This document shows positions 24,214-54,190 of a stretch of DNA of 64,000 bases, one piece after another. A model generated the notes under the pieces. That model saw nothing but the letters and a program-made list of their open reading frames with translations, had not been told where the DNA came from and did no database searches. How positions within the stretch are numbered: the stretch's first letter is position 1; each line of letters begins with the position of its first letter. A program made the position numbers and the translations under genes. Source of the DNA: Candidatus Woesearchaeota archaeon. GTDB taxonomy: Archaea > Nanobdellota > Nanobdellia > Woesearchaeales > JBDRGA01. The stretch is from assembly GCA_043818175.1 (NCBI GenBank), contig JBDRGA010000016.1:14003-78002 (forward strand), given 5' to 3'.

Positions 24214-24565
24214 CTGTTAATGGGAATGTTTGTTGTATATATAAGCGTTTCGACATTTGACTATTGAGTAGTGATTACAAATTGTGGATGTTATGTGACC
24301 CTCCTGTTGCACTTGGAAACGCGAAAATCAAAATAAACGAACTTTTTCGAATGATGTTTATATATAATATATAATATATTTCAATATTGAAAAATAATAA
24401 TAAGAGTTCTCATTTCTGATATTAAACAAGAAAACAGTCGCAAGCCATATAAGAAAGTTCCATAGGAAATGAAGGGGTGTCTCTTCATCACTCGAAACCA
24501 ACAATTCCCTTACTTATATTCTCGTAGCGCAATCCTTAAATAGGGGTGTGTTTCGAGTGCAACGT
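24214..24565. other. Putative replication origin (oriC): ORB element, AT-rich unwinding region and inverted repeats upstream of orc1/cdc6
   Basis: A full ORB-like box GTTCCATAGGAAATGAAGGGGTG lies at ~24457-24479. A ~70-bp >85% AT stretch at 24355-24420 contains the palindrome TTTCAATATTGAAA. Inverted repeats GTTGCACTTGGAAAC (24306-24320) and GTTTCGAGTGCAAC (24550-24563) flank it. The layout matches the Pyrococcus cdc6-polD origin. Confidence 0.55.
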
Positions 24566-25771
24566 ATGGGGAATTTGAAGAATTATTTCGAGGCATACCT
24601 GAACACAACAAGCATTTTTAGTGATAAACATGTGCTTCAGAGCAACTACTTTCCAACCGAAGTAAATCATCGGAACGAACAGATAACTCAAGTGGCTAAA
24701 ATACTCGCTCCAGCACTTCGCGGCGAGAAACCGAGCAACCTATTTATTTATGGAAAAACAGGAACCGGAAAGACACTTTGCGTGAAACACACAACAAGTC
24801 AGATGTCCAAGGTGGCATCTGAGAAAGGAATTGCATTAAAAGTGTGTTATTTGAACTGCAAACTCAAGAAGATTGCAGATACAGAATACAGGCTTATTGC
24901 ACAGCTCGCGAGAGAATTTGGCAAGGCGATTCCACCAACAGGACTACCAACGGACGAAGTTTACAACACTTTCTTTTCTGCTCTAGATGCCGAGAAACAA
25001 ATAGTATTGTTGGTTCTGGACGAAATTGACCAATTGGTTAAGAAAGCAGGGGATGAAATAATATACAATCTCACAAGAATAAATTCAGACCTTAAGAACT
25101 CACAAGTGAGCATTATAGGAATAAGTAATGATTTAATGTTCAGTAACAATCTAGACCCACGCGTCAAGTCGAGTTTGAGTGAAGAGGAGCTTCTCTTTCC
25201 ACCATACAACGCGCTTCAGATCCAGGAAATACTAAAAGAAAGAGCAGACATCGCATTCAAAGAAGGAGCACTCCAGGAAGGAGTAATACAAAAATGTGCA
25301 GCATATGCTGCAAGGGAACACGGTGATGCGAGAAGAGCACTAGAACTGTTAAGAGTTGCAGGAGAACTGGCAGAAAGAAGCCAACAGGAACAAGTAACAA
25401 CAGAACAGATAGACAGCGCAGAGGATAAGATAGAGCACGACAGAGTGTATGAATTGGTAAAAACACAACCAAAACAACACCAACTCGTACTTTTCAGCAT
25501 TTTAAACATAAAACCAGAGAACTCACAAACCCAAATTTATACAGGAGAAGTTTACGATTATTACAAAGGGCTCTGCGACCAGGTTAGCCAAAGACCATTG
25601 ACGCAAAGAAGAGTCAGTGATGTAATACAGGAAATGGACATGTTGGGCATAATAAATGCAAACGTGATAAGCAAAGGCCGTTTTGGCCGGACAAGAGAAA
25701 TAAGTCTTGCGATACATCATTCCCTGAAGACAAAAATAATGACCACGTTGAAAGATGAAGTATTCTCCTGA
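24566..25771 (+). CDS. cdc6: Orc1/Cdc6 replication initiator
   Basis: AAA+ Walker A GKTGTGKT, Walker B LVLDEID, sensor motifs and a C-terminal winged helix. The track ORF starts at a GTG at 24548; I used the ATG at 24566. Confidence 0.88.
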   Translation: MGNLKNYFEAYLNTTSIFSDKHVLQSNYFPTEVNHRNEQITQVAKILAPALRGEKPSNLFIYGKTGTGKTLCVKHTTSQMSKVASEKGIALKVCYLNCKLKKIADTEYRLIAQLAREFGKAIPPTGLPTDEVYNTFFSALDAEKQIVLLVLDEIDQLVKKAGDEIIYNLTRINSDLKNSQVSIIGISNDLMFSNNLDPRVKSSLSEEELLFPPYNALQIQEILKERADIAFKEGALQEGVIQKCAAYAAREHGDARRALELLRVAGELAERSQQEQVTTEQIDSAEDKIEHDRVYELVKTQPKQHQLVLFSILNIKPENSQTQIYTGEVYDYYKGLCDQVSQRPLTQRRVSDVIQEMDMLGIINANVISKGRFGRTREISLAIHHSLKTKIMTTLKDEVFS

Positions 25772-27204
25772 TGGACCCCGAACTCATCAAACGGCTTCTT
25801 GAGAAGAACATTCTGGTGTCGCCAGACACCACAGATGAAGAAGCCAGAAGGCTACTTGGCGATGCACCAGAAACCAAATTAGTTATCAATCCAAACGAAG
25901 CACCGGAATTGAATATAGTTTATGATTTCAACGAACCGCCAAAGAAACGCACAGTTCAGGACTTTGTAGGGTTATTTAATGCGAGATTCCGCGAGCTTGA
26001 AGGAATACTGAGGAATCGTGTTGAACTACAGAACCTTACCAGCATTTCGAGAGCCAAGAAAATGCAGGCCAGAGAAAGAACAGCAATTATTGGAATGGTT
26101 CTGGACAAGCGCGAAACAAAAAATCACAACATAATACTTGTCATGGAAGACCAGACCGGAAGCATAACAACAATATTCACTCAGAAAAACAAAGAAACGT
26201 TTGAAATGGTCAAAGACATAATGCTGGATGAAGTAATAGGCATAACAGGCCAGACCGCAGGAGATGCAATCTTTGCTGATAAAATAATTTTGCCAGATGT
26301 GCCAGTAACAAAAGAACTCAGAAAAGCACAAGAGGATGAATATTTGGTCGTGCTTGGAGACCCACACATAGGAAGCAAACGATTTCTAAGACACAGCTTC
26401 GGAAAGTTTCTCCAATGGATAAATGCAGAGGCGGGCACACCAGAACAAAGAGATAATGCGAAAAAAGTAAAACACATAATTGTTACTGGTGATTTGGTTG
26501 AGGGAGTCGGAATTTATCCAAACCAGGAAAGGGACTTGGAAATTCCAGACATACGTGCACAGTACGAAGCCCTAACGAGTATAATCAGTCAGATTCCACA
26601 ACGAATACGGATAACGATGTTCACAGGCAACCACGATTCTGGCAGGATGGCAGAACCCCAACCCGCCCTGGGAGACTATTATTCAGAAACGTTGCACAAA
26701 TTACCAAACGTGACGTTCGTAAGCAATCCAAGCGTAGTCAACATAGGCAGAACAGACAAGTTTGAAGGATTTGATTTGCTTCTTTACCATGGATATAGTT
26801 TAGGATACTACGGGACAAATATACCAAGCGTCAGAGCGGCAGGAGGCATGACGCGCGCGGACCTAATCATGAAATACTTTCTTCAGAGAAGACACCTTGC
26901 GCCATCTCACAAGAGCACACTGTATGTTCCCACACCTCAGAAAGACCCGCTAGTAATATCCACAATTCCCGACTTCTTCATAACCGGGCACACCCACTGT
27001 GTTACTGTAACCAATTACAGAAATATTACTTTAATTAATGGCAGTTGCTGGGCGGGAATGAGTGAAGACCAGGAAAAGAGAGGAATAACACCAGCTCCAG
27101 CAAGAATAATTCTGGTGAACTTGAAGACAAGAGCAGTAAAGATAATGAATTTCATGGACAAGACAGACATAGAAGAAGGAAGGAGCCTGGAGCTGGTTGC
27201 ATGA
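25771..27204 (+). CDS. polB: DNA polymerase D small subunit (DP1; Mre11-like phosphoesterase)
   Basis: 477 aa; OB domain plus calcineurin-like phosphoesterase motifs (VVLGDPHIG, GDLVEGVG, GNHD, GHTH). Confidence 0.85.
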   Translation: MDPELIKRLLEKNILVSPDTTDEEARRLLGDAPETKLVINPNEAPELNIVYDFNEPPKKRTVQDFVGLFNARFRELEGILRNRVELQNLTSISRAKKMQARERTAIIGMVLDKRETKNHNIILVMEDQTGSITTIFTQKNKETFEMVKDIMLDEVIGITGQTAGDAIFADKIILPDVPVTKELRKAQEDEYLVVLGDPHIGSKRFLRHSFGKFLQWINAEAGTPEQRDNAKKVKHIIVTGDLVEGVGIYPNQERDLEIPDIRAQYEALTSIISQIPQRIRITMFTGNHDSGRMAEPQPALGDYYSETLHKLPNVTFVSNPSVVNIGRTDKFEGFDLLLYHGYSLGYYGTNIPSVRAAGGMTRADLIMKYFLQRRHLAPSHKSTLYVPTPQKDPLVISTIPDFFITGHTHCVTVTNYRNITLINGSCWAGMSEDQEKRGITPAPARIILVNLKTRAVKIMNFMDKTDIEEGRSLELVA

Positions 27205-30200
27205 ACGCAAGCAAACAGATGCAGCAGTACTTCAAGGAACTAGAGAAACAGTGCTTCAAAGAGCTTGCTGTTGCCGAGTCCTGTAGGAAAAAGTCATACG
27301 ACCCGACAAAAGAAGTGGAGACAGCTCTCGCGAAGAACATGGCAGAGCGAGTAATAGGAATAATTGCAGTTGTAGCACCCCAGATACGAGGAAAAGGAGC
27401 AGAAAAAAGAATACAGGAACTCGAGAAAGAGTATGGTGTTCTCGACTGGAGAGTTGCGCTGAAAATATCTGAAGAGATTGCAAGGCAGAAATTCTGCACG
27501 TTCAAAGATGAACGGGAAGCAATGGAAGTGGGTATTCGTGCAGGATTCACATATGTTACAGTTGGTGTTGTCAGCAGTCCCTTAGAAGGATTCACAAGCC
27601 TGGAACTGAAAGACAGAATGGATGGAACGGGGAAGTATTTCTGTCTGAATTATTCTGGCCCAATTAGGAATGCAGGTGGAACAGCGGCGGCGGTAAGTGT
27701 CATAATAGGAGATTATGTTCGAGTAAAGTTCGGCTATAAAGAATACGATCCAACAGAAAAAGAAGTAAAGCGTTGTTTTGCAGAAATGATGGATTATCAT
27801 GAATGGATTGCGAATTTGCAATATGTTCCTTCGGAAGCAGAAACGGAATTCTTGTTGCAGAGAATACCTGTAGAAGTAAGTGGCGACCCAAGCGAGAAGT
27901 ACGAAGTAAGCAACATAAATTTGAAAGACCTTCCAAGAGTGCAACATAATAGATTAAGGTCGGGCTACTGTCTGATTCATTCAAGCTGCATACCTTTGAA
28001 AGCACCAAAGCTGTGGAAGCAATTGTCTGTTTGGGGAGAAGAATTCTCGATGGGACACTGGAAGTTCCTTGAAGAATTTCTCGTGCTGCAGAAGAAGATG
28101 AAAGCACAGGGAAAGAAAGCAGCAAGTGACAAGCTTGCTCCGGATTATACATTCATTCATGATCTTGTTGCTGGCAGGCCGGTATTTGGACATCCATCAA
28201 GACAAGGAGGGTTCAGGTTAAGATATGGTAGGAGCAGAACATCAGGATTCAGCGGTCAAAGTTTGCATCCAGCAACAATGGTAGTGATGAACGAATACAT
28301 TGCTACTGCAACGCAACTCAAAGTCGAAAGACCCGGAAAAGCAGCAGCGTTTACGGTTTGTGATACAATAGAAGGTCCCGTAGTAAAGTTAGAGTCGGGA
28401 GACGTGGTGTGTTTGAACAACGAAAGGGAAGCACGAAAAATACGACCACAGATAAAAGAGATAATATACGCAGGAGACATCCTGATAAACTGGGGTGATT
28501 TCCTCAACAGAGCTCACGTCTTGGCGCCGGCAGGGTATTGTGAGGAATACTGGATACAGGAAGTTGAGGAGAGAATAGTGCACTTGTTCGGTACTCTGGA
28601 CTTCGAAAAGGCAGGATACTTACTGGATGAAGAAGAAGGCAAACTTCGAAGTATGTTCTCAAATCCTTTAGGGACGAATGTAAATGCGAGCACTTCAATT
28701 AAAATGAGCACGCGGCTGGGCTGTCCATTACATCCAGCACATACATTCAAATGGCGCGCATTGTCTGCGAAGCAACTCAAGGAACTTGTCGTGTGGCTAA
28801 AGAAAGGAAAAACAATAGAGGAAAGTGAGTATAAACTCATTCTTCCATTGGATTCAGCGAAGAGATATCTCGAGCTAATTGCATGTCCCCACAAACACAT
28901 CCAGAATGAACATTCAGTCATACAGCACGAAGCATTGCTGGCGCTGAAGACACAACTGGACTTCGAAAACATAAAAGAAGAAGACCTGTCTGAAGAGGGG
29001 AACGCGCTTAATGTTATAATATCACTCGCGGCCTATCCAATCAGAGATAAATTGGGCATTTCAATAGGTGCGAGGATGGGTCGTCCCGAAAAAGCAAAGA
29101 TGAGGAAGCTCACTGGAAGCCCGCATGCACTTTTCCCAATAGGCGAACAAGGGGGAAAACTGAGAAGCTTCCAGGAAGCACTGGTGGCTGGCAATGTTGA
29201 AGCAGATTTTGGAGTTTATTGGTGTGGCAAGTGTAAGAAAGAACAAGTATTGCCAATATGTATAACTTGTGAAAAGCCAACAGAGAAGAAGAAATTCTGC
29301 ACGACCTGTGGTGTAGTTGATGAATGTCCTCACGAACCAAAACCATTCAAGCGCAGCACAATACCAATACGAGAATACTTCAATTATGCACTAAAAAAAG
29401 GAGGCACAAGCATATATCCAGACCTGATTAAAGGGGTGAGGGGCACAGTTGGCACTGAACACATACCCGAGCACCCGTTGAAGGGAATATTGCGTGCAAA
29501 ACACAGCATCTGTGTAAACAAAGACGGCACAACCCGGTATGACATTAGTGAGGTCACAATGACCCACTTCAAACCAAAAGAAGTTGGCACATCTGTGGAA
29601 AAATTAAGGGAATTGGGATATACTAGTGACGTTTATGGTAAACCATTGGACCACGAAGACCAGGTTCTCGAATTAAAAGTGCAGGATGTCGCGCTTCCCA
29701 GCTGTCCAGATAGCCCCGACCTTCCGTGTGATGAAATACTATATAGAACTGCGAACTTCATGGACGAGCTGCTCGTGAGTCTTTACGGTCAAAAACCATT
29801 CTACAATCTCCAGAACAGAGCAGACTTGGTGGGTCATCTAGTGATTGGGTTGGCTCCGCATACTTCTGCAGGCATCCTTGGGAGAATCGTTGGCTTCACA
29901 AAAACACAAGGATTCTTCGCCCACCCTCTCTATCATGCAGCAATGCGCAGAGACTGCGATGGTGATGAGAGTTGTGTTGTGTTGCTTCTTGATTGTCTTG
30001 TCAACTTCTCCAAATCTTTCTTACCCAGCAGCAGAGGAAGCACGATGGACGCACCAATAGTACTGACATACATCTTAACACCATCAGAAGTGGACGATAT
30101 GGCATTTGATGTTGATAGGGTTTGGAAGTACCCTCTGAAACTGTACAGGGCTGCAGAACAATACAAAATGCCCTGGGACGTCCCACTTGATAAAATAGGG

Positions 30201-30704
30201 AACCACCTCGGAAAGCCAGGCGAGTACGAAGGCATGGGTTTTACGCACGACACAGACAACATCAATGCAGGTGTTCTTTGCAGCGCGTACAAGCTCTTGC
30301 CAAGCATGCAGGAGAAACTCATGAGTCAAATGGACCTAGCCGAGAAACTCAGAGCAACAACAGCTTCAGAAGTGGCAGCTTTGGTGATTGAGAAACACTT
30401 CATTAGAGATATTAAGGGAAATCTTCGTAAGTTTTCGCAGCAGGAATTCAGGTGTGTTAACTGTAATGCTAAATACAGACGACCACCCTTGAAGGGAAAT
30501 TGCACTACCTGTAATGGAAAGATAATATTCACAATAGCAGAAGGAAGTGTCATTAAGTACTTGGGCCCTTCAATCAGTCTAGCAAAGAAATATGGAGTTA
30601 GCACTTATCTTCAACAGACATTGGAACTTACACAGCAGCGTATTGACGAGCTTTTTGGCAAGGACAAGGAGAAGCAGTTAGGACTTGGTGCGTGGTTTGG
30701 GTAA
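27201..30704 (+). CDS. polC: DNA polymerase D large subunit (DP2), intein-free
   Basis: 1167 aa collinear with archaeal DP2. Zn-finger cysteine clusters (CGKCKKE..CITC, CTTCG, CVNCNAKY..CTTCNG). Its start overlaps the DP1 stop by 4 nt. Confidence 0.85.
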   Translation: MNASKQMQQYFKELEKQCFKELAVAESCRKKSYDPTKEVETALAKNMAERVIGIIAVVAPQIRGKGAEKRIQELEKEYGVLDWRVALKISEEIARQKFCTFKDEREAMEVGIRAGFTYVTVGVVSSPLEGFTSLELKDRMDGTGKYFCLNYSGPIRNAGGTAAAVSVIIGDYVRVKFGYKEYDPTEKEVKRCFAEMMDYHEWIANLQYVPSEAETEFLLQRIPVEVSGDPSEKYEVSNINLKDLPRVQHNRLRSGYCLIHSSCIPLKAPKLWKQLSVWGEEFSMGHWKFLEEFLVLQKKMKAQGKKAASDKLAPDYTFIHDLVAGRPVFGHPSRQGGFRLRYGRSRTSGFSGQSLHPATMVVMNEYIATATQLKVERPGKAAAFTVCDTIEGPVVKLESGDVVCLNNEREARKIRPQIKEIIYAGDILINWGDFLNRAHVLAPAGYCEEYWIQEVEERIVHLFGTLDFEKAGYLLDEEEGKLRSMFSNPLGTNVNASTSIKMSTRLGCPLHPAHTFKWRALSAKQLKELVVWLKKGKTIEESEYKLILPLDSAKRYLELIACPHKHIQNEHSVIQHEALLALKTQLDFENIKEEDLSEEGNALNVIISLAAYPIRDKLGISIGARMGRPEKAKMRKLTGSPHALFPIGEQGGKLRSFQEALVAGNVEADFGVYWCGKCKKEQVLPICITCEKPTEKKKFCTTCGVVDECPHEPKPFKRSTIPIREYFNYALKKGGTSIYPDLIKGVRGTVGTEHIPEHPLKGILRAKHSICVNKDGTTRYDISEVTMTHFKPKEVGTSVEKLRELGYTSDVYGKPLDHEDQVLELKVQDVALPSCPDSPDLPCDEILYRTANFMDELLVSLYGQKPFYNLQNRADLVGHLVIGLAPHTSAGILGRIVGFTKTQGFFAHPLYHAAMRRDCDGDESCVVLLLDCLVNFSKSFLPSSRGSTMDAPIVLTYILTPSEVDDMAFDVDRVWKYPLKLYRAAEQYKMPWDVPLDKIGNHLGKPGEYEGMGFTHDTDNINAGVLCSAYKLLPSMQEKLMSQMDLAEKLRATTASEVAALVIEKHFIRDIKGNLRKFSQQEFRCVNCNAKYRRPPLKGNCTTCNGKIIFTIAEGSVIKYLGPSISLAKKYGVSTYLQQTLELTQQRIDELFGKDKEKQLGLGAWFG

Positions 30705-35468: not shown

Positions 35469-36059
35469 TTATTCAAGAACCCTAACCTTTCCCTTGACTT
35501 CATAAACATCGCCTTCCTTCATCAGCGTGTCCAGTATTTCATCGAAGTTCGGAAGATTGACTTCGTTTTCCAATGCAACAATATCAACACCTTGGCCTTT
35601 GTCTAACGTTCTTATTGCTTCAACAACAAGATTATTAGGACTTTTTATGAGCTCGGCTTCCTGAACGGGCGCTATGTGTTGCTTTACTGTCTGCGTCGGA
35701 CGTCTGTTTTCCAGTTCTTTTCGTCTGATAAGAACCCAAGTCATATCTTGCTTTTTTATAATTTCAGAAGCGAGGAAAATTCCTCCGGAGCTCCTTGGTC
35801 TGCCTATAACAAGCACGATGTCTCCGACATCTTCGTTTATCGTGCCATCAAAATTCCTGACTGTTATTTGGCCGGAGCCGTCGTCAACGAGAACTTCGGA
35901 AGTGGAATCTTTCTGCACGACAACCCCGATTAAGTTAACACGAGAAACATCACCAAAGCGCGTCTGCAAGACACTTGGCTCCATTCCTTCCCTCTGCACG
36001 TAACTCCCTTCAACAATATCCTTCGCGGAAAGCTTGACTGCGGTTAGGTGGGGTCGCAT
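35469..36059 (-). CDS. OB-fold plus C-terminal winged-helix protein, RPA32/Rpa2-like
   Basis: Central OB-fold pattern (VNLIGVVVQKDSTSEVLVDDGSGQITVRNFDG) and a C-terminal wH-like segment; lies downstream of MCM on the same strand. Assignment is tentative. Confidence 0.35.
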   Translation of the reverse strand: MRPHLTAVKLSAKDIVEGSYVQREGMEPSVLQTRFGDVSRVNLIGVVVQKDSTSEVLVDDGSGQITVRNFDGTINEDVGDIVLVIGRPRSSGGIFLASEIIKKQDMTWVLIRRKELENRRPTQTVKQHIAPVQEAELIKSPNNLVVEAIRTLDKGQGVDIVALENEVNLPNFDEILDTLMKEGDVYEVKGKVRVLE

Positions 36060-36167: not shown

Positions 36168-36569
36168 TCAAGGGTACAAGTCATATCTGCAGGTGTAGAT
36201 GTTGCCGTTTGTGTCGAGTGCTTCATCTAGACGGAAAAGCATCCAAACACCGCTTATTTCTGTTCCGTCAGTCAATACGATATCTAGGTCTCTTCTGAAT
36301 AAGTTTCTATCCAACGCTTCGGAATATGTCATATCTTCTGGAAGCTTATCTTCGACCCACATCGTACCGTTCTGGTTGTTGTACGTGTTGCCTTCCTTGA
36401 GTATTGTGAATGCTTGTTCGTCATTTTGGACGGGCGCACCAACGGCGCCGGACAATTCATAGATACCAGGGCACGATATATATTGCGCACTCGAAGAAGA
36501 TTTACATCCTGTCAGCGCACCAGTCAACAAAATGAGAATGCATAAAGCGAGAATGCTTTTCGATGTCAT
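36168..36569 (-). CDS. Small secreted lipoprotein
   Basis: Signal peptide with lipobox LTGALTGC; 133 aa. Confidence 0.5.
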   Translation of the reverse strand: MTSKSILALCILILLTGALTGCKSSSSAQYISCPGIYELSGAVGAPVQNDEQAFTILKEGNTYNNQNGTMWVEDKLPEDMTYSEALDRNLFRRDLDIVLTDGTEISGVWMLFRLDEALDTNGNIYTCRYDLYP

Positions 36570-36659: not shown

Positions 36660-39600
36660 TCACATCTTACTAATCTTTCCAGGCTTGGGATGATAGATAT
36701 CTCCCTTCCTGGTTAGCTTTTCTAAGATTTCTTCTGCCTTGTCCTGGTTGATGCTCTGGTTCAGGGCTTCCTGGATAACGTCTTCCGTCTCAATTACCTT
36801 GCCGTACGTTTCAGTCAGTTGATTAATAATCTCCTTGATTTGGTGAATCTGATTACGTTCAGAAGCAGGAATACCTCCAGTGAAACGGTCAATGTCAATC
36901 TTTCCCGTTTGAGGGTCCATTCCAATCTGTTGCAAGCAGTAATGAACCAGTTCAATCGCTCTTCGGGAGTCCTTCCTTCTAATTACAGTGTCCAATCTTG
37001 TTTTAGCTGAAGCTTCACTCAAACGAACAAGCGCTTCCAACTGACGAGCAGAAATCGGTACTGCTTTAACACCACCCTCGCCTCCACCAGAAGCACGCAT
37101 TTCAACGAAGTATCTTTGGATCTCTTCCTTGGCTTCATCGCTTAGAATGGGCTTGCAGCGTATCCTAGCATAACTCACGTACTTCTTGTAGAATTCAGTC
37201 TTCAGTTCAACCGTGTCAAGAGCGTGCTCATCCTGATGCAGGTCTAGGATGAAACTAGCCATCTGCTCGTCCTTGAACTTATCGGGCATGTCTTTCACTG
37301 CAAAGATTAGGTCAAAGCGATTAATCAACGTAGAAGGCAGTTCAATCTGTTTTCCAACCATCTCGTAGGGGTCAAAACGCCCGAATTTTGGGTTTGCAGC
37401 TGCGAGAACAGTTGTTTCAGCCCTCAATGTTGCCTGAATGTTCGCTTTAGAAATAGAAATAGTCTGCTGTTCCAAAGCTTCGTGCAAAGCACTAGTATCT
37501 TCTTTAGTCATCTTATCTAGTTCGTCAATACAACAGATGCCTTTGTTCGTTAAAGGCAAGGCTCCAGCTTCCAAAGCCCAACCACGAAGGAAATCATCTT
37601 TCACAACCGAAGCAGTATTGTGAACCAAAACACCGTCAACGATGAAATTATGCGAATCCTCCACAGTTAAGTCATACACAAAGTCAAACTTTGACTTCTT
37701 CAATTCAACAGATTTCACCTTTTCCCAGAACACATCGCTGTTTGCCAGCGCGAGAAGCTCGACGTCTTCTATTTGATTCTCAAGTACAATTCTCTGCAAC
37801 GCTTCTTTGCTCAGATTGGGATGCCATCCTGCCTTTTTGAGTGGAATCTTTCTAGATTGGAGAATCTCCTTCAACCGCTCAGAAACGCCAGGAACAACAT
37901 CAATGTTTGTATTGTGCTTGGTTTTTGAAATTAATGCCAGTTTTGCCTTCTTTTTGGGGTGGCGTAATGGAATCTCTTTTGCAAATGTCTCGATGTCCTT
38001 ACCTCTTATTGATAGAACCCATTTGTCCAGTTTTCCCTGAATCTTCGAATTAACACTCGGGCTTCTGGGTCTTAATCGTGCATGCACGCCATATCTTAGG
38101 AATGCAAGCTGAAGCTGCCGTGCGAGTTTCTCTGAACAAGTCGTGAACTCGATGCACGAGCTATTATGTCCTTTACTGACGTAAACAGATCCATCTGCGT
38201 CATATAGTCCTGCGATGTATGAAGCAAGAAGTTTATTTGAAAGGTGAAGGAGTGTATTGGACATAAATATTGAAGACGATTTGGGGCTTAGTGAAATTCC
38301 GAGAGACATAAGAATCTCTCCAACAATCTTTGATGCAACTCTGCTTGCCTGTGGTCTGGTATCTGATTCTGGTTGAGTATCACATGAAAGTTGGAATTCC
38401 TTCTCAAACAAGTTTCTGAATGTGTCAAGAATGGTTGGTTCGCCGTTTGACAACCTAATGGCTATTGAATCTCCTGGAGTTTTTCTCATGTCGCCGTCGC
38501 CTGCGATGAGCCCTGCAACATGGAGAAATTCTTTTGAGAGATTGATGGGCACTTTGTGCTTCTTCCCGTTCCAGAGACTCACTGTCTGTACTCTGTGTTT
38601 CCAAGGAATCCTCGCAGCTTCAGCAAGGAGTCTCAGGTCATTAAGCTTGATGGTCCCTCTGGTTTCTGGATTCACCCAATGATGATATAGTTGGTTCTCG
38701 TTTATGCAAAGCGCGTTGGCTGCCTTTCTCACAGAACCGTATATTTCTTTCAGAATCTCAACAGATTCCTTGACCAAATCCTCAACGCCGCGCACAACAG
38801 GATTGCTCGCAATAAGGTCAACTGGGCTTTGCTCATTGACTGTGCCTCCAATTAGTTTTCTGGGTGTTCCGACAAAAGTGCCAGTTGTTATCTCAGAACT
38901 CTTAGTCCAAGACGGCTTACCACCATTTAGTACGAAGAGTTTCGTATTTGCAGTAAGTTGAACCCGTTTTCCGCTATCAAGCGTTACCTCATACATGAAT
39001 TCAGGAGCCTCAAGACGCCATATTGCAGAGGGATGCTTAGAATGTAACTTCATGTCTTTAGATAAAGACTGTATTTTGACATCTGTCACGTTATCTCTTT
39101 TCCACACACCTGATCTGAACTCAAGAGGAAATTCCATTCTTGATTCAACAACCTCTTGGATTGTTTCACATCCTCCTGGATTTGTAAGAACCATGCTTTC
39201 AGGGCTCACGCACAATCCAGCACCGGACGCACCTTTACCAGAAACAAACCTTGATTTAGGCGCAACTTTAGCAATTCTCCTCAACAATTGTGATTTTCCC
39301 GAACCAGGGTCTCCAATGAGCAGAATATGTATGTCTCCTCTCCTAACTACACCATCGGTCATGCTCTTTCTCACACCACCAAACAATTGCAATAACAGCG
39401 CTTCCTTGATTTTATCGTGACCGTAAATGCTTGGAGCTAAACTACCAATCAATGATTCGTAAACATCAGGCCTTTTGGCGAAATCCTCTATTCCAGCCAG
39501 TTCTTCAGGAGAAATAGCCATCTCAGAGAAATCTTCAAGCACTGGTTCTACAAAATTTGCTTCGCACATCAAATCAAAGCGAGTGCTCTGTCCGCCTTGT

Positions 39601-40295
39601 TGCAAGGTAATTGGAACCTCTTTTACGATTCCAACAACCTTTATCTTTGCACCAGGATTGGTTCTTTTCTCTGTTATTGGAGAGACAAGATCGTTCTTCA
39701 GGAAGATGTTGAACCTTTTAGGTTGCTCTCCGCCTTCTAATTCGTCAGGAGACTCTTCTAAAGTAATCTTCTGCGCATCGACCAGTTCCTTACCAATCAA
39801 ACGGAACTTACCTTTTCTACCACAACCACATCTTGTTGGCTCCTTGAATTTAGTATCGAGCTGTAGCACCGCAATAATATTGCCACAGGAAGGGCATTCA
39901 AAACGAGCAGCCGTTACTTGAGGCCGGACATCTGTCTTCTGCTTTACGATACCCTGCATCTCGAGAAATTTGCCAATATGTCTGGAACGAATATCTCTGA
40001 TCATAATCTGCTGACTTTCAGGAAGGTCCTTGAATCGTATCTGGAAGTTCTTTACTTCTCCAGCAAGATCAAACCGGTCAACGGCAGCAGAAGCAGCAGC
40101 CAGTACTTCTTCAGGGTCTTCGAGCAGCAGGTCAGCTAGTTCAGGATTGAACTTCGCGAGCTCTCCAAGCTCCACAACGAGAAACTTATGCCCCTTCGAG
40201 GCCTGTTTTACCAGGTCTGCGTAATGATGTTCCTCGAGGAACTTGTGGAAAAGCTCAATCTGCTTGGCTGCATCGATTGTTTGAGCTTCCTGCAT
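36660..40295 (-). CDS. mcm: MCM replicative helicase interrupted by one large intein
   Basis: N-terminal Zn motif CPSCGN...CGCG, Walker A GDPGSGKSQ, Walker B CCIDELDKM, sensor and arginine-finger regions, and a C-terminal wH. It is 1211 aa, of which ~679 aa is extein. Confidence 0.88.
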   Translation of the reverse strand: MQEAQTIDAAKQIELFHKFLEEHHYADLVKQASKGHKFLVVELGELAKFNPELADLLLEDPEEVLAAASAAVDRFDLAGEVKNFQIRFKDLPESQQIMIRDIRSRHIGKFLEMQGIVKQKTDVRPQVTAARFECPSCGNIIAVLQLDTKFKEPTRCGCGRKGKFRLIGKELVDAQKITLEESPDELEGGEQPKRFNIFLKNDLVSPITEKRTNPGAKIKVVGIVKEVPITLQQGGQSTRFDLMCEANFVEPVLEDFSEMAISPEELAGIEDFAKRPDVYESLIGSLAPSIYGHDKIKEALLLQLFGGVRKSMTDGVVRRGDIHILLIGDPGSGKSQLLRRIAKVAPKSRFVSGKGASGAGLCVSPESMVLTNPGGCETIQEVVESRMEFPLEFRSGVWKRDNVTDVKIQSLSKDMKLHSKHPSAIWRLEAPEFMYEVTLDSGKRVQLTANTKLFVLNGGKPSWTKSSEITTGTFVGTPRKLIGGTVNEQSPVDLIASNPVVRGVEDLVKESVEILKEIYGSVRKAANALCINENQLYHHWVNPETRGTIKLNDLRLLAEAARIPWKHRVQTVSLWNGKKHKVPINLSKEFLHVAGLIAGDGDMRKTPGDSIAIRLSNGEPTILDTFRNLFEKEFQLSCDTQPESDTRPQASRVASKIVGEILMSLGISLSPKSSSIFMSNTLLHLSNKLLASYIAGLYDADGSVYVSKGHNSSCIEFTTCSEKLARQLQLAFLRYGVHARLRPRSPSVNSKIQGKLDKWVLSIRGKDIETFAKEIPLRHPKKKAKLALISKTKHNTNIDVVPGVSERLKEILQSRKIPLKKAGWHPNLSKEALQRIVLENQIEDVELLALANSDVFWEKVKSVELKKSKFDFVYDLTVEDSHNFIVDGVLVHNTASVVKDDFLRGWALEAGALPLTNKGICCIDELDKMTKEDTSALHEALEQQTISISKANIQATLRAETTVLAAANPKFGRFDPYEMVGKQIELPSTLINRFDLIFAVKDMPDKFKDEQMASFILDLHQDEHALDTVELKTEFYKKYVSYARIRCKPILSDEAKEEIQRYFVEMRASGGGEGGVKAVPISARQLEALVRLSEASAKTRLDTVIRRKDSRRAIELVHYCLQQIGMDPQTGKIDIDRFTGGIPASERNQIHQIKEIINQLTETYGKVIETEDVIQEALNQSINQDKAEEILEKLTRKGDIYHPKPGKISKM
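37617..39212 (-). mobile_element. MCM intein (~532 aa) with a LAGLIDADG homing-endonuclease domain
   Basis: Inserted after SGKGASGAGL. It begins CVSPESMVL and ends GVLVHN, with T as the +1 extein residue. Two LAGLIDADG blocks are present (VAGLIAGDGDM and LASYIAGLYDADGSV). Coordinates are derived by residue counting, +/- a few nt. Confidence 0.8.
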
Positions 40296-40921
40296 TAGCG
40301 TACATTCTTGACGTTCTCGATGAGCATGGCAAGCGCTTTATGCACCTGTTCTTCGCTCTTAGTACCTGTGCAAACAACCTTTCCGTTGCTGAACAGGAGG
40401 AACGTGGCTTTTGCTTCCCTTAGCTTGTATACAAGTCCTGGGAACTGTTCTGGCTCGTATTCTGTGTTTTCGAGCTTCATAGCCAATGTGTTAAGGTTAA
40501 GGTCCATGCCTATGCTTCCTGAAGCAACGATGTTCTGGATTATTATCTTAGGTGTTATTGTTATCTTTATACCTATTTTCTTCAAAGATTCGATAATCTT
40601 CTGGATTGACTCCTCAACTTTCTCCATGCTTCTCGCGCCAGTGCAGACCACTTTGCCAGAGCTGAATATCAAAGCTGAAGTTTTGGGTTCACGAATCCTA
40701 ATTACCAAACCAGGGAACTGCTCAGGATTGTATTCTGTGTTGGACAAAGTTGCAGCCATCTTTTCCAGAGGAATATCGTGCTCAAGGCTAGTGCTAACTA
40801 CCATATTAACAACTTCAACTTGAACTTCGCGTTTAATTCCTTTATCGGTCTTAATTGCTTTGTCGGTTGATGTTTTCTGTACGGCCTTTTTTGCTGCTTT
40901 GTGTGCGGCTTTCTTTGGCAT
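40295..40921 (-). CDS. tbp: TATA-box binding protein with a Lys-rich N-terminal extension
   Basis: Two TBP repeats (NTEYNPEQFPGLVIRIREPKTSALIFSSGKVVCTGARS and NTEYEPEQFPGLVYKLREAKATFLLFSNGKVVCTGTKS). The track ORF runs to 41029 through a TTG; I used the Met at 40921 (MPKKAAHKAAKK...). Confidence 0.85.
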   Translation of the reverse strand: MPKKAAHKAAKKAVQKTSTDKAIKTDKGIKREVQVEVVNMVVSTSLEHDIPLEKMAATLSNTEYNPEQFPGLVIRIREPKTSALIFSSGKVVCTGARSMEKVEESIQKIIESLKKIGIKITITPKIIIQNIVASGSIGMDLNLNTLAMKLENTEYEPEQFPGLVYKLREAKATFLLFSNGKVVCTGTKSEEQVHKALAMLIENVKNVR

Positions 40922-40928
40922 AATACAA

Positions 40929-41150
40929 ACCCCCTGTTTCGGGTTCTTTCTTAAACCCTTTATAAGGGGAATTGCTTTCTTATTTATAAAGGCTTTCGTT
41001 CCCTGACCAGTATGTTGCTTATACACCAATTCCAGAATCTAAGACCCCTTGATTTCCACTGGAACTTTGGCTGTAGAGGCTCTGTAAGGCCAGTATTTGG
41101 TGTTCTTTATGTTTTGGTGACGAAATAGACCCCCTTGTTTCCGATGGAAC
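40929..41150 (-). promoter_or_regulatory. Cluster of ORB-like elements (two full boxes plus a mini-ORB) and a TATA element upstream of tbp-mcm
   Basis: On the minus strand the full boxes are GTTCCATCGGAAACAAGGGGGTC (~41128-41150) and GTTCCAGTGGAAATCAAGGGGTC (~41044-41065). A mini-ORB CCCGAAACAGGGGGT (~40929-40943) lies 8 bp before the TBP ATG, and CCCCTTATAAAGGG sits at ~40956-40969. Confidence 0.5.
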
Positions 41151-46811: not shown

Positions 46812-48284
46812 TCACAACGGTTCAACAGATTGAGGGAGGGTCTTCACGAAATTCAGGCGCTCTTCTCTGTTTATCTTGTCGCTCTTGAACATATAACGGC
46901 TCCTGCAATACCTGCAGCACGGTTCATTGTTCATTTTGAAGAATTTTGGGGGTATGTCCTCTTCCACAACACGAGAAATGCAGTTCTGGTTCTGGCACAG
47001 AAGATAGACAAACTTCTTCGTGATTGTTCCTTTGTTGATGTAATTTATTGTTGTCTCGGGCGATATCAAGGCCGCCCGTTTCAAGTCACGATCAGTCAAC
47101 GATGGAAGGTCCGTCTTCAATATGTTTGTGCTCTTTTGGGGAATGTGTGCAAATATGGCCAGCTTCCCTCGCTCCTTGAGCTTCAGTTGCATTCCGATTT
47201 CTAGTTCAAGTCCCTTTGCTATGTGGTCAATTACAACACCATCTTTTATGTCATTTATTATCCCTGGTTCTCTGTTCTTTGAACCATGTCTGAGCAGAAT
47301 GTTGTTTCCATTTTCCAACAAAGGATTCAGGATGCCTGAGAATTGAACAATTTCGGCGTCTTTGAACATACTGTAAAGAAGCGCTTTCCTCAGAAATATG
47401 CCATTCTCCGCCTGCTTGAAGAATCCCTGTGCATCGCTGAAGTAAACAGCATGGTCAATTTCTGCCAGTTCGCTGTTGACAGGCAAAGGATGCAAAACCT
47501 TTCCCTTGAATTCACGAACCCGTTCAAGTGTGATCCTGTACTTGTCCATTAAATCATGGACTTGAGAGGCAGAACTACCCATTCTCTCCAATTGAGGTCG
47601 GGTCATGTAGAAAACATCAACGTTCTTCATAACATCAACAACTTCAGCATGTCGAACGACTTTTACGCCTTTCTTAGCAAGGTGCTCTGTAAGTGAAGTG
47701 GGCATTCCAAGAAAATCCTCAGCACACCAATGAATCTCAACGTTATCATAATTGGCTAAAGCTAATGTCTGGGAATGTATAGTTCTTCCATGCGCTAGAT
47801 CACCTCCATAACCCACTTTTATTCCATCGAGCTTTTCTCTCAAAGTGCTCATCGTGAAAAGGTCAAGCAATGCCTGCGTGGGGTGCTCGTTCTTTCCATC
47901 GCCCCCATTAATAACAGGAATCTCAGAAACGTCAGCAGCCCACTGAACACTTCCATCTTTAGGATGTCGCATCACGATAGCGTCAGCATGATTGGCCTCA
48001 AACATCTTTATCGTATCTCTTATGCTTTCCTTCTTCGTTACGGACGTGCCCTCAATACCGCTGAAACCACCTGCTCTTCCACCAAGCTCTACAATTGCAG
48101 TTATGAAACTCTGCCTTGTCCTTGTGCTTGGCTCGTAGAAAAGGTTTGCAAGCCGGAAAGTGCGAGGAAGCTGTAGTGAATACCTCTTGCCAGATTCCTC
48201 AATTTGCTTCATCTTCCCGGCCAACGCGAGAAGCTTGTTGATTTCGTCCTTCGAGAAGTCCTGAATGGAAATTACATCCCCCAT
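46812..48284 (-). CDS. pyrBI: Aspartate carbamoyltransferase with fused catalytic (PyrB) and regulatory (PyrI) chains
   Basis: N-terminal ~310 aa carry STRTR, HPTQ and HPLP ATCase motifs. The C-terminal ~150 aa match PyrI (GVVIDHI..., zinc site CQNQNC...CCRYC). Confidence 0.8.
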   Translation of the reverse strand: MGDVISIQDFSKDEINKLLALAGKMKQIEESGKRYSLQLPRTFRLANLFYEPSTRTRQSFITAIVELGGRAGGFSGIEGTSVTKKESIRDTIKMFEANHADAIVMRHPKDGSVQWAADVSEIPVINGGDGKNEHPTQALLDLFTMSTLREKLDGIKVGYGGDLAHGRTIHSQTLALANYDNVEIHWCAEDFLGMPTSLTEHLAKKGVKVVRHAEVVDVMKNVDVFYMTRPQLERMGSSASQVHDLMDKYRITLERVREFKGKVLHPLPVNSELAEIDHAVYFSDAQGFFKQAENGIFLRKALLYSMFKDAEIVQFSGILNPLLENGNNILLRHGSKNREPGIINDIKDGVVIDHIAKGLELEIGMQLKLKERGKLAIFAHIPQKSTNILKTDLPSLTDRDLKRAALISPETTINYINKGTITKKFVYLLCQNQNCISRVVEEDIPPKFFKMNNEPCCRYCRSRYMFKSDKINREERLNFVKTLPQSVEPL

Positions 48285-52939: not shown

Positions 52940-54190
52940 TTGAGGACTATCAAAATGGCCAAAATAATCGAAACTGAAAGATCCATAGTACCTGCGTGGA
53001 ACGTCAAAACATCAAGATTTAGAAAAGTCTTGCAGGGAACTGCAAACGTTGAGGGTATTGGCGCGTACATGATAGGCGCGGTTCCAATACTTGAGCATGG
53101 CCTTCCGGAAGCAGTTGAGCGTGCCCGTGAAGTAAGACAAGGAGTGCCCTTGCTCTACAACCACGGAGGGCTAGGAAGTGACTTTGAGCAATTACAGTCT
53201 CCAGTATTTCAGGAAATCAAGAGAGCAGGAGTAGAAGCAGTAGTTCTGACTGGATTGGCAGGGCCAAGTGTTCTTTCAAGCTGGATACGTGCTGCCCAGA
53301 CAGCAGGTCTTGAAGTCGTGTTGGAACAAATGCAGCCACACTCAGGATTCTTAAGTCAGAATCCAATGGATACATCAGATGTTTTGTCTGGTTATCTGCT
53401 CCCTAAGGCAATCATTGATGCGCACAAGTTAGCAGTCTCGCAAGGTGTGAGAATGTTCATCCTTCCTGGCGAATCAGCATACTTGCCCGATTTTGTCGAG
53501 CAAATGAAGGGAAAAATTAAGGCGACTTTCAAGGACAGAGACTGTACTGTCCACTATAGAAGCACGGAAACTGGTAAATTGGAACGGAGTCCTTATCACG
53601 AAATCAACGGTGTTGACGTGATGGAACACGGCCTCGGCGGCGTGCTTTTCGAGTTGGCGCAGCACAATGACAAATCTGCAATAATAGATTGGCAGAGTTT
53701 AGGTACGTACACACCCAACAGGGCAGCAGAACTTGTCGGTGCTGTACTAAAAGCGCCGATGAAGTCAAGCGTACGTGCCATAAGAGTTCTGCCGCTTTCT
53801 GGTTCGTCCACTCTGGATGCGATTAGCGAGGCAGCAGGAACAAGAGTGAAGCTTCTAGTGGAAGCACATCGTGGAAACGAAGACTACACAAAGTCAAATG
53901 GAGGTTTCCTAACAACTGAAACACCCGAGTTCATCTTGTCAGAAGCAAACGCAAAGGGAACAGGAATAATGTTCCCATCGAACAGAGAACGCGAGCTCAA
54001 AGCGTTCATGGAAACGCATCCAAATGCTGAGTTCTTCATTGGAGGGTCTAGTGGGAGTAACAGAATTCCAACGGACAGATTATTACCTAGGTCATATCAT
54101 AGGGTTATTGGAAGCGCACTAGTATTGAACTCAGATTCAGGCGCGATTGAAAGACTGGCAGATAGTTACGTCCAGAAGCTACGTTCCTGA
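52940..54190 (+). CDS. Hypothetical protein (416 aa), possibly an alpha/beta-barrel enzyme
   Basis: No confident motif; Gly-rich segments. Confidence 0.35.
   Translation: MRTIKMAKIIETERSIVPAWNVKTSRFRKVLQGTANVEGIGAYMIGAVPILEHGLPEAVERAREVRQGVPLLYNHGGLGSDFEQLQSPVFQEIKRAGVEAVVLTGLAGPSVLSSWIRAAQTAGLEVVLEQMQPHSGFLSQNPMDTSDVLSGYLLPKAIIDAHKLAVSQGVRMFILPGESAYLPDFVEQMKGKIKATFKDRDCTVHYRSTETGKLERSPYHEINGVDVMEHGLGGVLFELAQHNDKSAIIDWQSLGTYTPNRAAELVGAVLKAPMKSSVRAIRVLPLSGSSTLDAISEAAGTRVKLLVEAHRGNEDYTKSNGGFLTTETPEFILSEANAKGTGIMFPSNRERELKAFMETHPNAEFFIGGSSGSNRIPTDRLLPRSYHRVIGSALVLNSDSGAIERLADSYVQKLRS

Follow-up and report, generated by a model that had tools for sequence, protein, structure and literature searches.

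A probable class-1-type intein lacking the block B histidine in the MCM gene of a Woesearchaeota-like (DPANN) genome fragment

The MCM gene and its insert

MCM is the commonest archaeal intein host. In the window, by which we mean the whole 64-kb stretch of DNA analyzed here, we found a single mcm gene, an uninterrupted reading frame of 3.6 kb whose 1211-aa product has no identical entry on record. The protein carries the Pfam domains MCM_N, MCM_OB, MCM P-loop, MCM_lid, and MCM_WH_arc, and an insert divides its P-loop domain into two stretches. The parts of the gene are as follows.

36660..40295, minus strand: MCM precursor gene, comprising N-extein, intein, and C-extein, 1211 aa (ORF list; Pfam)
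39213..40295, minus strand: N-extein, aa 1 to 361, with the C-terminal end FVSGKGASGAGL (translation)
39291..39314, minus strand: Walker A motif of MCM, GDPGSGKS (translation)
37617..39212, minus strand: intein, 532 aa, from Cys1 to His531-Asn532 (translation, Pfam, structure model)
36660..37616, minus strand: C-extein, starting at Thr+1 (TASVVKDDF...), stop codon included (translation)
37509..37532, minus strand: Walker B motif of MCM, CIDELDKM (translation)

The initial annotation described an element of ~532 aa that interrupts the 1211-aa MCM after SGKGASGAGL, and this proved exact. SGKGASGAGL spans aa 352 to 361 of the precursor, with Leu361 at position -1. As had been read from the letters, the insert starts with Cys (precursor aa 362, codon 39210..39212) and ends in His-Asn (aa 892 and 893, Asn codon 37617..37619), followed by Thr (aa 894). 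Its placement just downstream of Walker A, in the ATPase core, also holds: 27 residues lie between the Walker A Lys334 and Cys362, and the insertion point precedes Walker B within the AAA+ core. Excision of the insert yields the junction SGKGASGAGLTASVVKD, which is identical in three intein-free relatives (P0016, P0018, and P0022), and the junction of the spliced MCM core aligned gap-free with the Pfu and Tko MCM structures. The extein retains intact Walker A, Walker B, and RFD arginine-finger motifs and is 62 to 66% identical to functional-looking MCMs; the mature protein after intein removal has 679 aa. For annotation, mcm is best recorded as a single 1211-aa precursor whose intein occupies 37617..39212; it should not be called frameshifted or fused.

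The insertion point is site b, a catalogued MCM insertion point (PMC4760082). It is shared with the second intein of Pyrococcus abyssi MCM, Pab CDC21-2 (intein 2 of UniProt Q9UYR7), which lies 27 residues past the P-loop site (PMC6801210), and, by literature description, with Tko CDC21-1, the first intein of Thermococcus kodakarensis MCM3 (TK1620), which is located between Walker A and Walker B (PMC3239210). Site B of haloarchaeal MCM, given as position 362 versus 335 (PMC3972481), is the same point. The Pab CDC21-2 intein is described as a 268-residue mini-intein without an endonuclease (PMC6801210), unlike the full-length window intein with its intact LAGLIDADG motifs.

DP2 and the other replication genes in the window had been called intein-free. 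Consistent with this, no intein domains were detected in DP2 (27201..30704), DP1, Cdc6/Orc1, a primase subunit, or Hef, and a search of 407 six-frame ORFs of the window with the intein-family profile returned one match, the MCM ORF.

The splicing domain and its block B

The residues and blocks of the splicing domain map to the following positions.

39174..39212, minus strand: splicing block A, CVSPESMVLTNPG, with the nucleophile Cys1 (translation; Cys1 in 57/57 family members)
39015..39020, minus strand: Trp65-Arg66 (family alignment)
38937..38972, minus strand: splicing block B, GKRVQLTANTKL, with Thr87 at B:7 and Thr90 (38943..38945) at B:10 (alignment to PDB 6rpp/6rpq)
37617..37685, minus strand: splicing blocks F and G, DFVYDLTVEDSHNFIVDGVLVHN, with Asp514 (F:4), His521, the penultimate His531, and Asn532 (translation)

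The excised segment matches the Pfam family Intein_splicing (PF14890) with an E value of 1.3e-22, far beyond chance. An AlphaFold model of the intein is of high confidence (pLDDT 90.9, pTM 0.90), and its best Foldseek match in the PDB is PI-PkoII (2cw7; E=4.6e-27, TMq 0.68), with the TliVMA intein and PI-PfuI ranking next. Together, the Pfam hit, the model, and the matches to intein structures support a HINT fold of the splicing domain. Within the intein family (n=57), Cys1, Asp514, His531, and Asn532 are conserved in 100% of members and His521 in 96%; Asp514 and His521 both lie in the block F segment VYDLTVEDSHNF.

The three structural matches, PI-PkoII, the TliVMA intein (7qss), and PI-PfuI (1dq3), resemble the window intein in their overall architecture, which unites a HINT domain with a two-motif LAGLIDADG endonuclease and with accessory parts that bind DNA (Foldseek E=4.6e-27 to 1e-21, TMq 0.58 to 0.68). 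Nevertheless, they are only 16 to 18% identical to it and reside in other hosts, namely, DNA polymerase, V-ATPase, and RNR. The closest solved splicing domains by sequence are PDB 6rpp and 6rpq (E=1.6e-8 and 3.6e-9). They share with the window intein an additional beta-strand inserted between blocks A and B, a Trp-Lys dipeptide, and the block F/G sequence but differ in occupying the P-loop site a (GK/C...HN/S), in having a canonical His (TPTH), and in lacking an endonuclease.

The splicing residues named in the initial annotation are in place in blocks A (Cys1) and F/G (HN-T), whereas block B departs from the TxxH listed there. It reads T-A-N-T and aligns with the T-P-T-H of 6rpp/6rpq, so that B:10 is Thr90; in the model, residues 87 to 90 form the turn that joins strands 83 to 86 and 91 to 96. 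The His at B:10 is near-universal in inteins and usually essential. An exhaustive search gave 96 site-b inteins (clusters at 50% identity), in which B:10 is Thr (86) or Asn (10), and the same pattern was seen at 29 site-b loci of reference genomes (Thr in 26, Asn in 3); His was found in none of either set. On the other hand, all 24 sister inteins at the P-loop site in reference genomes have His at B:10. This clean split, spanning ~125 independent sequences, is of modest value in its own right.

Since Thr or Asn is fixed in 96/96 and 29/29 site-b inteins from many archaeal groups, the absence of the B:10 His is a trait of the lineage and not a sign of decay, in agreement with the published Tko CDC21-1 orthologs, which splice without it. 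Nor does the departure from TxxH count against an intein, because every site-b intein that we found is without this His and because an active precedent has been published: three papers (PMC4031507, PMC6333167, and PMC3239210) describe an active His-less intein at this site, Tko CDC21-1. This intein is reported to be fully active without the B:10 His and to use Lys58 instead (PMC4031507); PMC7765530 also reviews it. By analogy with this one characterized relative, the window intein would be competent to splice.

Loss of competence in a decayed, His-less copy is, in our view, very improbable. Such decay could be suspected where the missing residue is one described as the most conserved in inteins and where the view is limited to 64 kb of a genome. 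Moreover, of the two His-less inteins known in 2014, one was a degraded pseudogene (PMC4031507). However, the 3.6-kb frame is unbroken, the remaining catalytic residues are all intact, and the extein keeps its motifs and its 62 to 66% identity to functional-looking MCMs. Thr and Asn are fixed at B:10 throughout the site-b sets, the characterized relative splices (PMC4031507), and the window holds no second mcm gene; an intein-free copy could lie elsewhere in the genome.

The lack of the canonical block B His is also what might suggest a domain that belongs to an MCM lineage and was never an intein. We rejected this reading as having practically no chance of being correct: blocks A, F, and G are invariant, the B:7 Thr is kept, HINT and LAGLIDADG folds are predicted with high confidence, and the junction is seamless in close, insert-free relatives. 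Other intein classes were considered as well. Class 2 inteins have Ala1 with Ser at G:6, and class 3 inteins lack a nucleophile at position 1 and have a Trp-Cys-Thr triplet, its Cys at F:4 (PMC4031507); Cys1, Asp514 at F:4, and His531 at G:6 of the window intein led us to reject both. The element is very probably a class-1-type intein that belongs to the site-b lineage of MCM and harbors a nested LAGLIDADG homing endonuclease with two motifs; its host is the single MCM gene seen on this Woesearchaeota-like (DPANN) fragment. The copy itself adds one more ordinary member to a known lineage; its one oddity is the absence of a usually essential catalytic His.

The homing endonuclease and the distribution of site-b inteins

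Between the splicing halves lie the following features.

38568..38852, minus strand: mostly helical insert of ~95 residues, intein aa 121 to 215, separating the endonuclease from the N-terminal splicing half (model secondary structure)
37923..38567, minus strand: LAGLIDADG homing endonuclease core, intein aa about 216 to 430 (Pfam LAGLIDADG_3; fold matches to PI-PkoII, PI-PfuI, and I-DmoI)
38490..38519, minus strand: LAGLIDADG motif 1, VAGLIAGDGD, intein aa 232 to 241, catalytic Asp239 (translation)
38187..38216, minus strand: LAGLIDADG motif 2, IAGLYDADGS, intein aa 333 to 342, catalytic Asp340 (translation)

A full-length intein with two LAGLIDADG blocks and an intact-looking endonuclease had been proposed from the sequence, and each part of this description stood: both motifs have their catalytic Asp, and the excised segment matches Pfam LAGLIDADG_3 (PF14528; E=5e-19) in addition to the splicing family. 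This Pfam match and Foldseek matches to PI-PkoII, PI-PfuI, I-DmoI, and I-Tsp061I support a pseudo-dimeric alpha-beta-beta-alpha-beta-beta-alpha fold. The helical insert, which presumably takes part in DNA recognition, carries an E-N-x-L-Y-H-x-W family motif whose conservation allowed its use as a search pattern. The endonuclease would presumably cleave intein-less mcm alleles at the site coding for GAGL/TASV and so initiate homing. Its putative target, the reconstituted intein-less site of 60 bp, consists of TCTGGTAAAGGTGCGTCCGGTGCTGGATTG joined to ACTGCTTCGGTTGTGAAAGATGATTTCCTT at the insertion point. The window intein might also yield a LAGLIDADG endonuclease of new specificity.

The nearest relatives are inteins at site b of Woesearchaeota MCMs, 46 to 55% identical over the full length. 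Members of this group in public MAGs (L001 to L012, P0001, P0003, and P0145) share with the window intein the site, the length (530 to 538 aa), and a T-x-N-T block B, although none exceeds 55% identity. In a genome scan with the intein alignment, DPANN MAGs made up most of the matches, and isolates of Thermococcus or Pyrococcus were absent. The site-b lineage reaches beyond DPANN groups to Archaeoglobi, Halobacteria, a Thermococci MAG, Methanosarcinales, and Thaumarchaeota MAGs. The 96 site-b inteins homologous to that of the window include members from an Archaeoglobus sp. and Halorubrum distributum, and hits with E<=1e-30 number 610. A search for Thermococcales mini-inteins with concatenated splicing halves devoid of the endonuclease returned only two irrelevant DnaB fragments. 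A tblastn search of phage and plasmid collections revealed no viral or plasmid vector of the intein family; the hits were distant inteins only, in Bacillus/Psychrobacillus phage genes (helicase and terminase) and one Nocardia record. The initial annotation had proposed a comparison with intein-less alleles, and this showed a sporadic distribution: of the 120 MCMs nearest to that of the window, 119 are intein-free.

It is possible, although we would lean the other way, that the intein still splices but that its endonuclease is now inactive, which would make it a fixed, vertically inherited passenger and not a currently mobile element. Intein and extein identities roughly covary (62% extein and 51% intein for P0145, 45% and 45% for P0146), as expected of a passenger, and the nearest intein is just 55% identical. 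We saw no signal of recent transfer in composition: the GC content is 0.432 in the intein and 0.448 in the extein, and codon usage is indistinguishable from that of the host, leaving a recent arrival unsupported. In addition, some family members have lost catalytic residues, as has P0208 with its degenerate LAGLIDADG motifs. Several observations point instead to an endonuclease that is still at work. Both catalytic Asp residues persist in the window intein and in most of the family (Asp239 in 92%, Asp340 in 91%), and the tight length range of 512 to 555 aa in all 56 full-length members argues for continued selection on the endonuclease. The predominance of intein-free MCMs among the closest relatives is what gain-and-loss cycles of homing predict, and some identities are incongruent (extein 52% and intein 30% for P0203, against the 45% and 45% of P0146).

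Splicing without the block B histidine

For the class-1-type intein that we favor, splicing would proceed as follows. After folding of the 1211-aa precursor, Cys1 would begin an N-S acyl shift by attacking the peptide bond that links it to Leu(-1), and transesterification would then pass the N-extein to Thr+1. Cyclization of Asn532, aided by His531, would release the intein, and an O-N shift would restore the GAGL-TASV peptide bond, giving active 679-aa MCM. The first step would have to take place without the canonical block B His, with Thr90 of the T-A-N-T turn at B:10. Activation of the scissile bond would most likely come from Arg66, the bulky Leu(-1), and possibly the small polar side chain at B:10. 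Leu is found at position -1 in 91 of 94 site-b relatives, the other three having Ile.

Arg66, the basic residue that follows Trp65, is taken here as a candidate equivalent of Lys58, which the Tko CDC21-1 intein requires. In the family (n=57), position 66 is Lys (30) or Arg (27) and is the sole invariantly basic position of the splicing domain; in the wider set of 94 site-b inteins, it is Lys in 52, Arg in 41, and Gln in 1. It precedes B:10 by about 23 to 24 residues, a spacing that fits the review description of Lys58 (PMC4031507). The Trp-Lys/Arg dipeptide is also present in His-containing sister inteins, which weakens Arg66 as the sole compensating feature.

The likeness to Tko CDC21-1 goes further. 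Both inteins have an MCM host and interrupt it after Walker A and before Walker B. The flanking residues are Leu (-1), as in Tko CDC21-1 orthologs (PMC6333167), and Thr (+1), within a motif given as AAGL-TAA (PMC3239210, PMC6333167) that is GAGL-TASV in the window MCM. Both also lack the B:10 His (PMC4031507), and the family of the window intein has a conserved basic residue at the corresponding distance upstream. They differ in that Lys58 is reported for Tko CDC21-1 where the window intein has Arg, in that the window intein has 532 aa and bears an endonuclease, and in its DPANN host, which is not a hyperthermophile; the likeness is known from descriptions of Tko CDC21-1 and not from its sequence. 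A mesophile-type, full-length, apparently intact copy could be an easier model than the hyperthermophilic Tko intein for the histidine-independent N-S acyl shift.

A broader proposal, which we put forward tentatively and do not yet favor, is that all members of the site-b lineage, which at 50% identity has at least 96 clusters, splice with B:10 occupied by Thr or Asn and never by His. The putatively compensating basic residue (Lys58 in Tko CDC21-1, Arg66 here) is shared with the His-containing sisters at the P-loop site; loss of the His would then have been enabled by a pre-existing feature, and the strictly polar B:10 residue would contribute to catalysis together with Leu(-1). If true, this would be an ancient, broadly distributed variant of class 1 catalysis, as opposed to the "very small subset" of reviews.

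The initial annotation considered splicing essential, and this is a sound inference for MCM function: the unspliced precursor must be inactive, because the intein interrupts the ATPase core beside the helix-2 insert (PMC4760082). The same location makes it conceivable, if unlikely, that splicing is conditional and that the intein acts as a posttranslational switch on helicase supply, e.g., one gated by redox state or stress, as has been suggested for inteins of other replication proteins; conditional splicing is documented for RadA and DnaB inteins (PMC4513877, PMC6195587). Relatives have Met, Ile, or Leu at intein position 15, but the window intein carries an additional Cys there, and this residue might in principle form a pair with Cys1. 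However, Cys15 is not conserved in the family, and the patchy distribution of these inteins is more in keeping with a selfish element than with a regulator that has been retained.

The intein and its insertion site

The initial annotation had described an insert that follows SGKGASGAGL, starts with Cys, ends in His-Asn before Thr, and contains two LAGLIDADG blocks. Indexed translation bore this out, fixing the length of the insert at exactly 532 aa.

36660..40295, minus strand: MCM precursor ORF, 1211 aa (ORF listing)
MCM aa 328-335: Walker A, GDPGSGKS, before the intein
MCM aa 352-361: SGKGASGAGL, directly before the insert
39210..39212: codon of Cys362, which starts the insert
37617..39212: insert
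Intein aa 121-215: helical accessory insert, ~95 residues
38490..38519: LAGLIDADG motif 1, VAGLIAGDGD, intein aa 232-241
38187..38216: LAGLIDADG motif 2, IAGLYDADGS, intein aa 333-342
MCM aa 892-893: His-Asn ending the insert (Asn codon, 37617..37619), then Thr894
C-extein, after the intein: Walker B, CIDELDKM

Pfam matched the excised segment to Intein_splicing (E=1.3e-22) and LAGLIDADG_3 (E=5e-19), an intein-like match far above chance level, and split the MCM P-loop domain of the whole protein into two stretches on either side of the insert. An AlphaFold2 model built from a 14-sequence family alignment (mean pLDDT 90.9, pTM 0.90) had whole intein-endonucleases as its top PDB structural matches, with PI-PkoII the best (2cw7; E=4.6e-27, TMq 0.68) and the TliVMA intein (7qss) and PI-PfuI (1dq3) also among them; mini-inteins matched the splicing part and I-DmoI-type enzymes matched the nuclease part. 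The element is thus an intein that combines a HINT splicing domain with a two-motif LAGLIDADG nuclease and a helical accessory insert. Together with the Pfam matches and the model fold, the presence of both Asp239 and Asp340 upholds the earlier description of a full-length intein with an intact-looking homing endonuclease. Cys15 (39168..39170, NPGGCETI) is Met, Ile, or Leu in three full-length relatives; a Cys1-Cys15 disulfide gating splicing of the window intein is conceivable.

The Walker A lysine and Cys362 are separated by 27 residues. The Pyrococcus abyssi (Pab) CDC21-2 intein is described as lying “27 residues downstream” of the site used by the P-loop intein (PMC6801210), haloarchaeal MCM site B is position 362, versus 335 for site A (PMC3972481), and Thermococcus kodakarensis (Tko) MCM3 carries two inteins, the first of which occupies the Pyrococcus position in the stretch from Walker A to Walker B (PMC3239210). 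By sequence position, the window insertion point (site b) matches the descriptions of Pab CDC21-2, haloarchaeal site B, and the catalogued MCM site b (PMC4760082). The P-loop site (site a) is unoccupied in the window mcm; P0114, a close MCM relative from the database, has a different intein there (GAGK/C...IHN/S), with a canonical TPDH block B.

Excision leaves a 679-aa MCM that is 62 to 66% identical, over 98 to 100% of its length, to Woesearchaeota- or Nanoarchaeota-labeled MCMs of 669 to 690 aa. Comparison with intein-less mcm alleles, as the initial annotation had suggested, revealed a seamless junction: the intein is absent from 119 of the 120 best matches, and the intein-free relatives run uninterrupted across the site (SGKGASGAGLTA[ST]VVKD[ED]F). 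The spliced ATPase core aligns without gaps to MCM structures solved from archaea and eukaryotes, one of them Tko MCM3 (8x7t), whose junction reads SSAAGL-TAAAVRDEF. With its two Walker motifs kept apart by the insert, the precursor cannot work as a helicase, so splicing is needed, unless the genome has another mcm beyond the window (a search within it found no second mcm).

Block B without histidine

The TxxH motif of block B, listed for checking in the initial annotation, proved to be T-A-N-T. In a phmmer alignment to the Pab CDC21-1 intein structure (6rpp; GKRIRV-T-P-T-H-PFF), window block B reads GKRVQL-T-A-N-T-KLF, with Thr87 at B:7 and Thr90, not His, at B:10. The turn that joins strands 83-86 and 91-96 in the model consists of residues 87-90, and this geometry is the one reported for B:7 and B:10 (PMC4031507). 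Reviews rate His B:10 the most conserved residue of inteins and name only two exceptions, one pseudogene and the active Tko CDC21-1, which uses Lys58 (PMC4031507, PMC7765530). Leu at -1, reported for Tko CDC21-1 orthologs (PMC6333167), is also found in the window intein.

A search of 1.84 billion cluster representatives, with a profile built from four full-length relatives, yielded 13,471 matches at the E<=1e-3 cutoff, of which 610 reached E<=1e-30. Of these matches, the 150 best were inspected, as were those of the first homology search.

Residue at B:10, by insertion site
MCM site b (...G[LI]/C ... HN/T), exhaustive search, n=96: Thr 86, Asn 10, His 0
Other insertion sites, exhaustive search, n=13: His 10, Asn 2, Thr 1
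MCM site b, GTDB species-representative genomes, n=29: Thr 26, Asn 3, His 0
P-loop-type sites (GK/C), GTDB species-representative genomes, n=24: His 24

Among the 96 site-b sequences, 94 had a legible -1 residue, either Leu (91 sequences) or Ile (3). Named site-b hosts include Woesearchaeota, Nanoarchaeota, Aenigmatarchaeota, Thaumarchaeota, a Thermococci MAG, Methanosarcinales, Archaeoglobus sp., and Halorubrum distributum. Since His is absent from the surveyed site-b inteins of these many hosts, Thr or Asn, small polar residues only, is fixed at B:10 throughout a large, old lineage. As the substitution is lineage-wide and limited to small polar residues, the His loss reflects selection and not decay. 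The His-less state is not strictly limited to MCM site b, because P0235 and P0261, related inteins in a non-MCM host (...QQRGQQGIG[VA]/C ... HN/SG...), have Asn at B:10 and lack the block B His; P0271, in yet another insertion context, has Thr.

Among 57 full-length site-b inteins, all 512 to 555 aa, Cys1, Asp514 (F:4), His531, and Asn532 are invariant; His521 is kept in 96%, Trp65 in 98%, and the nuclease residues Asp239 and Asp340 in 92% and 91%, respectively. The window intein carries every one of them. Position 66 (Arg in the window), 23 to 24 residues upstream of B:10, is Lys or Arg in 57/57; no other splicing-domain position is invariantly basic. Tko Lys58 is one residue past a position 22 residues from B:10 (PMC4031507); because position 66 is invariantly basic and its spacing fits this placement, we propose Arg66 as the candidate equivalent of Lys58. 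The Trp-Lys/Arg dipeptide is present too in most His-containing sister inteins and thus alone cannot explain why only site-b inteins manage without His. A contribution of Leu(-1) may apply to the window intein, because Leu is near-universal there in site b. P0208, a 520-aa site-b family member, has the motifs LIGLYAGSLIY and ISGLFDYSANI without the catalytic Asp, a case of endonuclease decay without deletion, at nearly full length.

Class assignment, splicing, and mobility

The only canonical class 1 feature missing from the window intein is His B:10, an absence that is the published hallmark of the MCM site-b allele. Matched by descriptions, the element probably works as a class 1 intein, the site-b allele of Tko CDC21-1/Pab CDC21-2. 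Pab CDC21-2 is described as a mini-intein, whereas the window intein is full length with an intact-looking endonuclease and, unlike the characterized Tko and Pab members, resides in a DPANN-type genome. It adds to an already known kind of intein; the added value is a clean demonstration that surveyed site-b inteins never have the “essential” His and that their site-a sisters always do.

By established intein chemistry (PMC4031507), splicing would begin with an N-S acyl shift at Leu361-Cys362, followed by transesterification involving Thr+1, cyclization of Asn532 assisted by His531, and an O-N shift to give the 679-aa MCM. By analogy, Arg66 and strain from Leu(-1), possibly with Thr90, would activate the acyl shift, and the nuclease would cut the intein-less GAGL/TASV-coding site.

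The closest inteins, 46 to 55% identical, come from Woesearchaeota MAGs and marine metagenomes; a database look-up for the exact precursor protein found no record. The intein seems not to have arrived recently, because its GC content (0.432, versus 0.448 for the extein) and codon usage match those of the extein and the rest of the window. Intein identity tracks extein identity only loosely (extein/intein identities to the window MCM of 62%/51% for P0145, 45%/45% for P0146, and 52%/30% for P0203); this, with the near-absence of the intein from close MCMs, is what gain-and-loss homing cycles would be expected to produce. Searches of phage and plasmid collections found no relative, and the profile of the family detected no intein-like window ORF other than MCM. 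DP2, DP1, Cdc6/Orc1, the primase subunit, and Hef lack intein domains, as the initial annotation had held for the other replication genes. Five MCM precursors of 2000 to 2766 aa (P0136, P0154, P0179, P0189, and P0218) match the intein profile in 5 to 9 separate stretches, which suggests that most catalogued MCM insertion sites are occupied simultaneously.

Neighboring genes

24548..25771, plus strand: Cdc6/Orc1, intein-free
25771..27204, plus strand: DP1, intein-free
27201..30704, plus strand: DP2, intein-free
35469..36059, minus strand: 196-aa ORF, after the 133-aa ORF
36168..36569, minus strand: 133-aa ORF, downstream of mcm
40295..41029, minus strand: TATA-binding protein (TBP) ORF
46812..48284, minus strand: 490-aa ORF
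52940..54190, plus strand: 416-aa ORF
57247..61740, plus strand: 1497-aa ORF

The 1497-aa and 416-aa ORFs had no Pfam match at E<=1e-3. Neither did the 133-aa and 196-aa ORFs match Pfam; the former carries a signal at its N terminus and a lipobox-like cysteine (LTGALTGC). Cdc6/Orc1, DP1, and DP2 adjoin with overlapping or abutting ends, forming a replication gene cluster (24548..30704), with a possible replication origin upstream of cdc6. The 490-aa ORF, with OTCace_N and OTCace (aspartate carbamoyltransferase catalytic) together with PyrI and PyrI_C (regulatory chain), looks like a PyrB-PyrI fusion. The TBP ORF as listed has a Lys/Ala-rich N-terminal extension ahead of two TBP repeats. Because its TAA overlaps the MCM start codon (TAATG, 40293..40297), TBP and MCM appear to be cotranscribed and are possibly translationally coupled.
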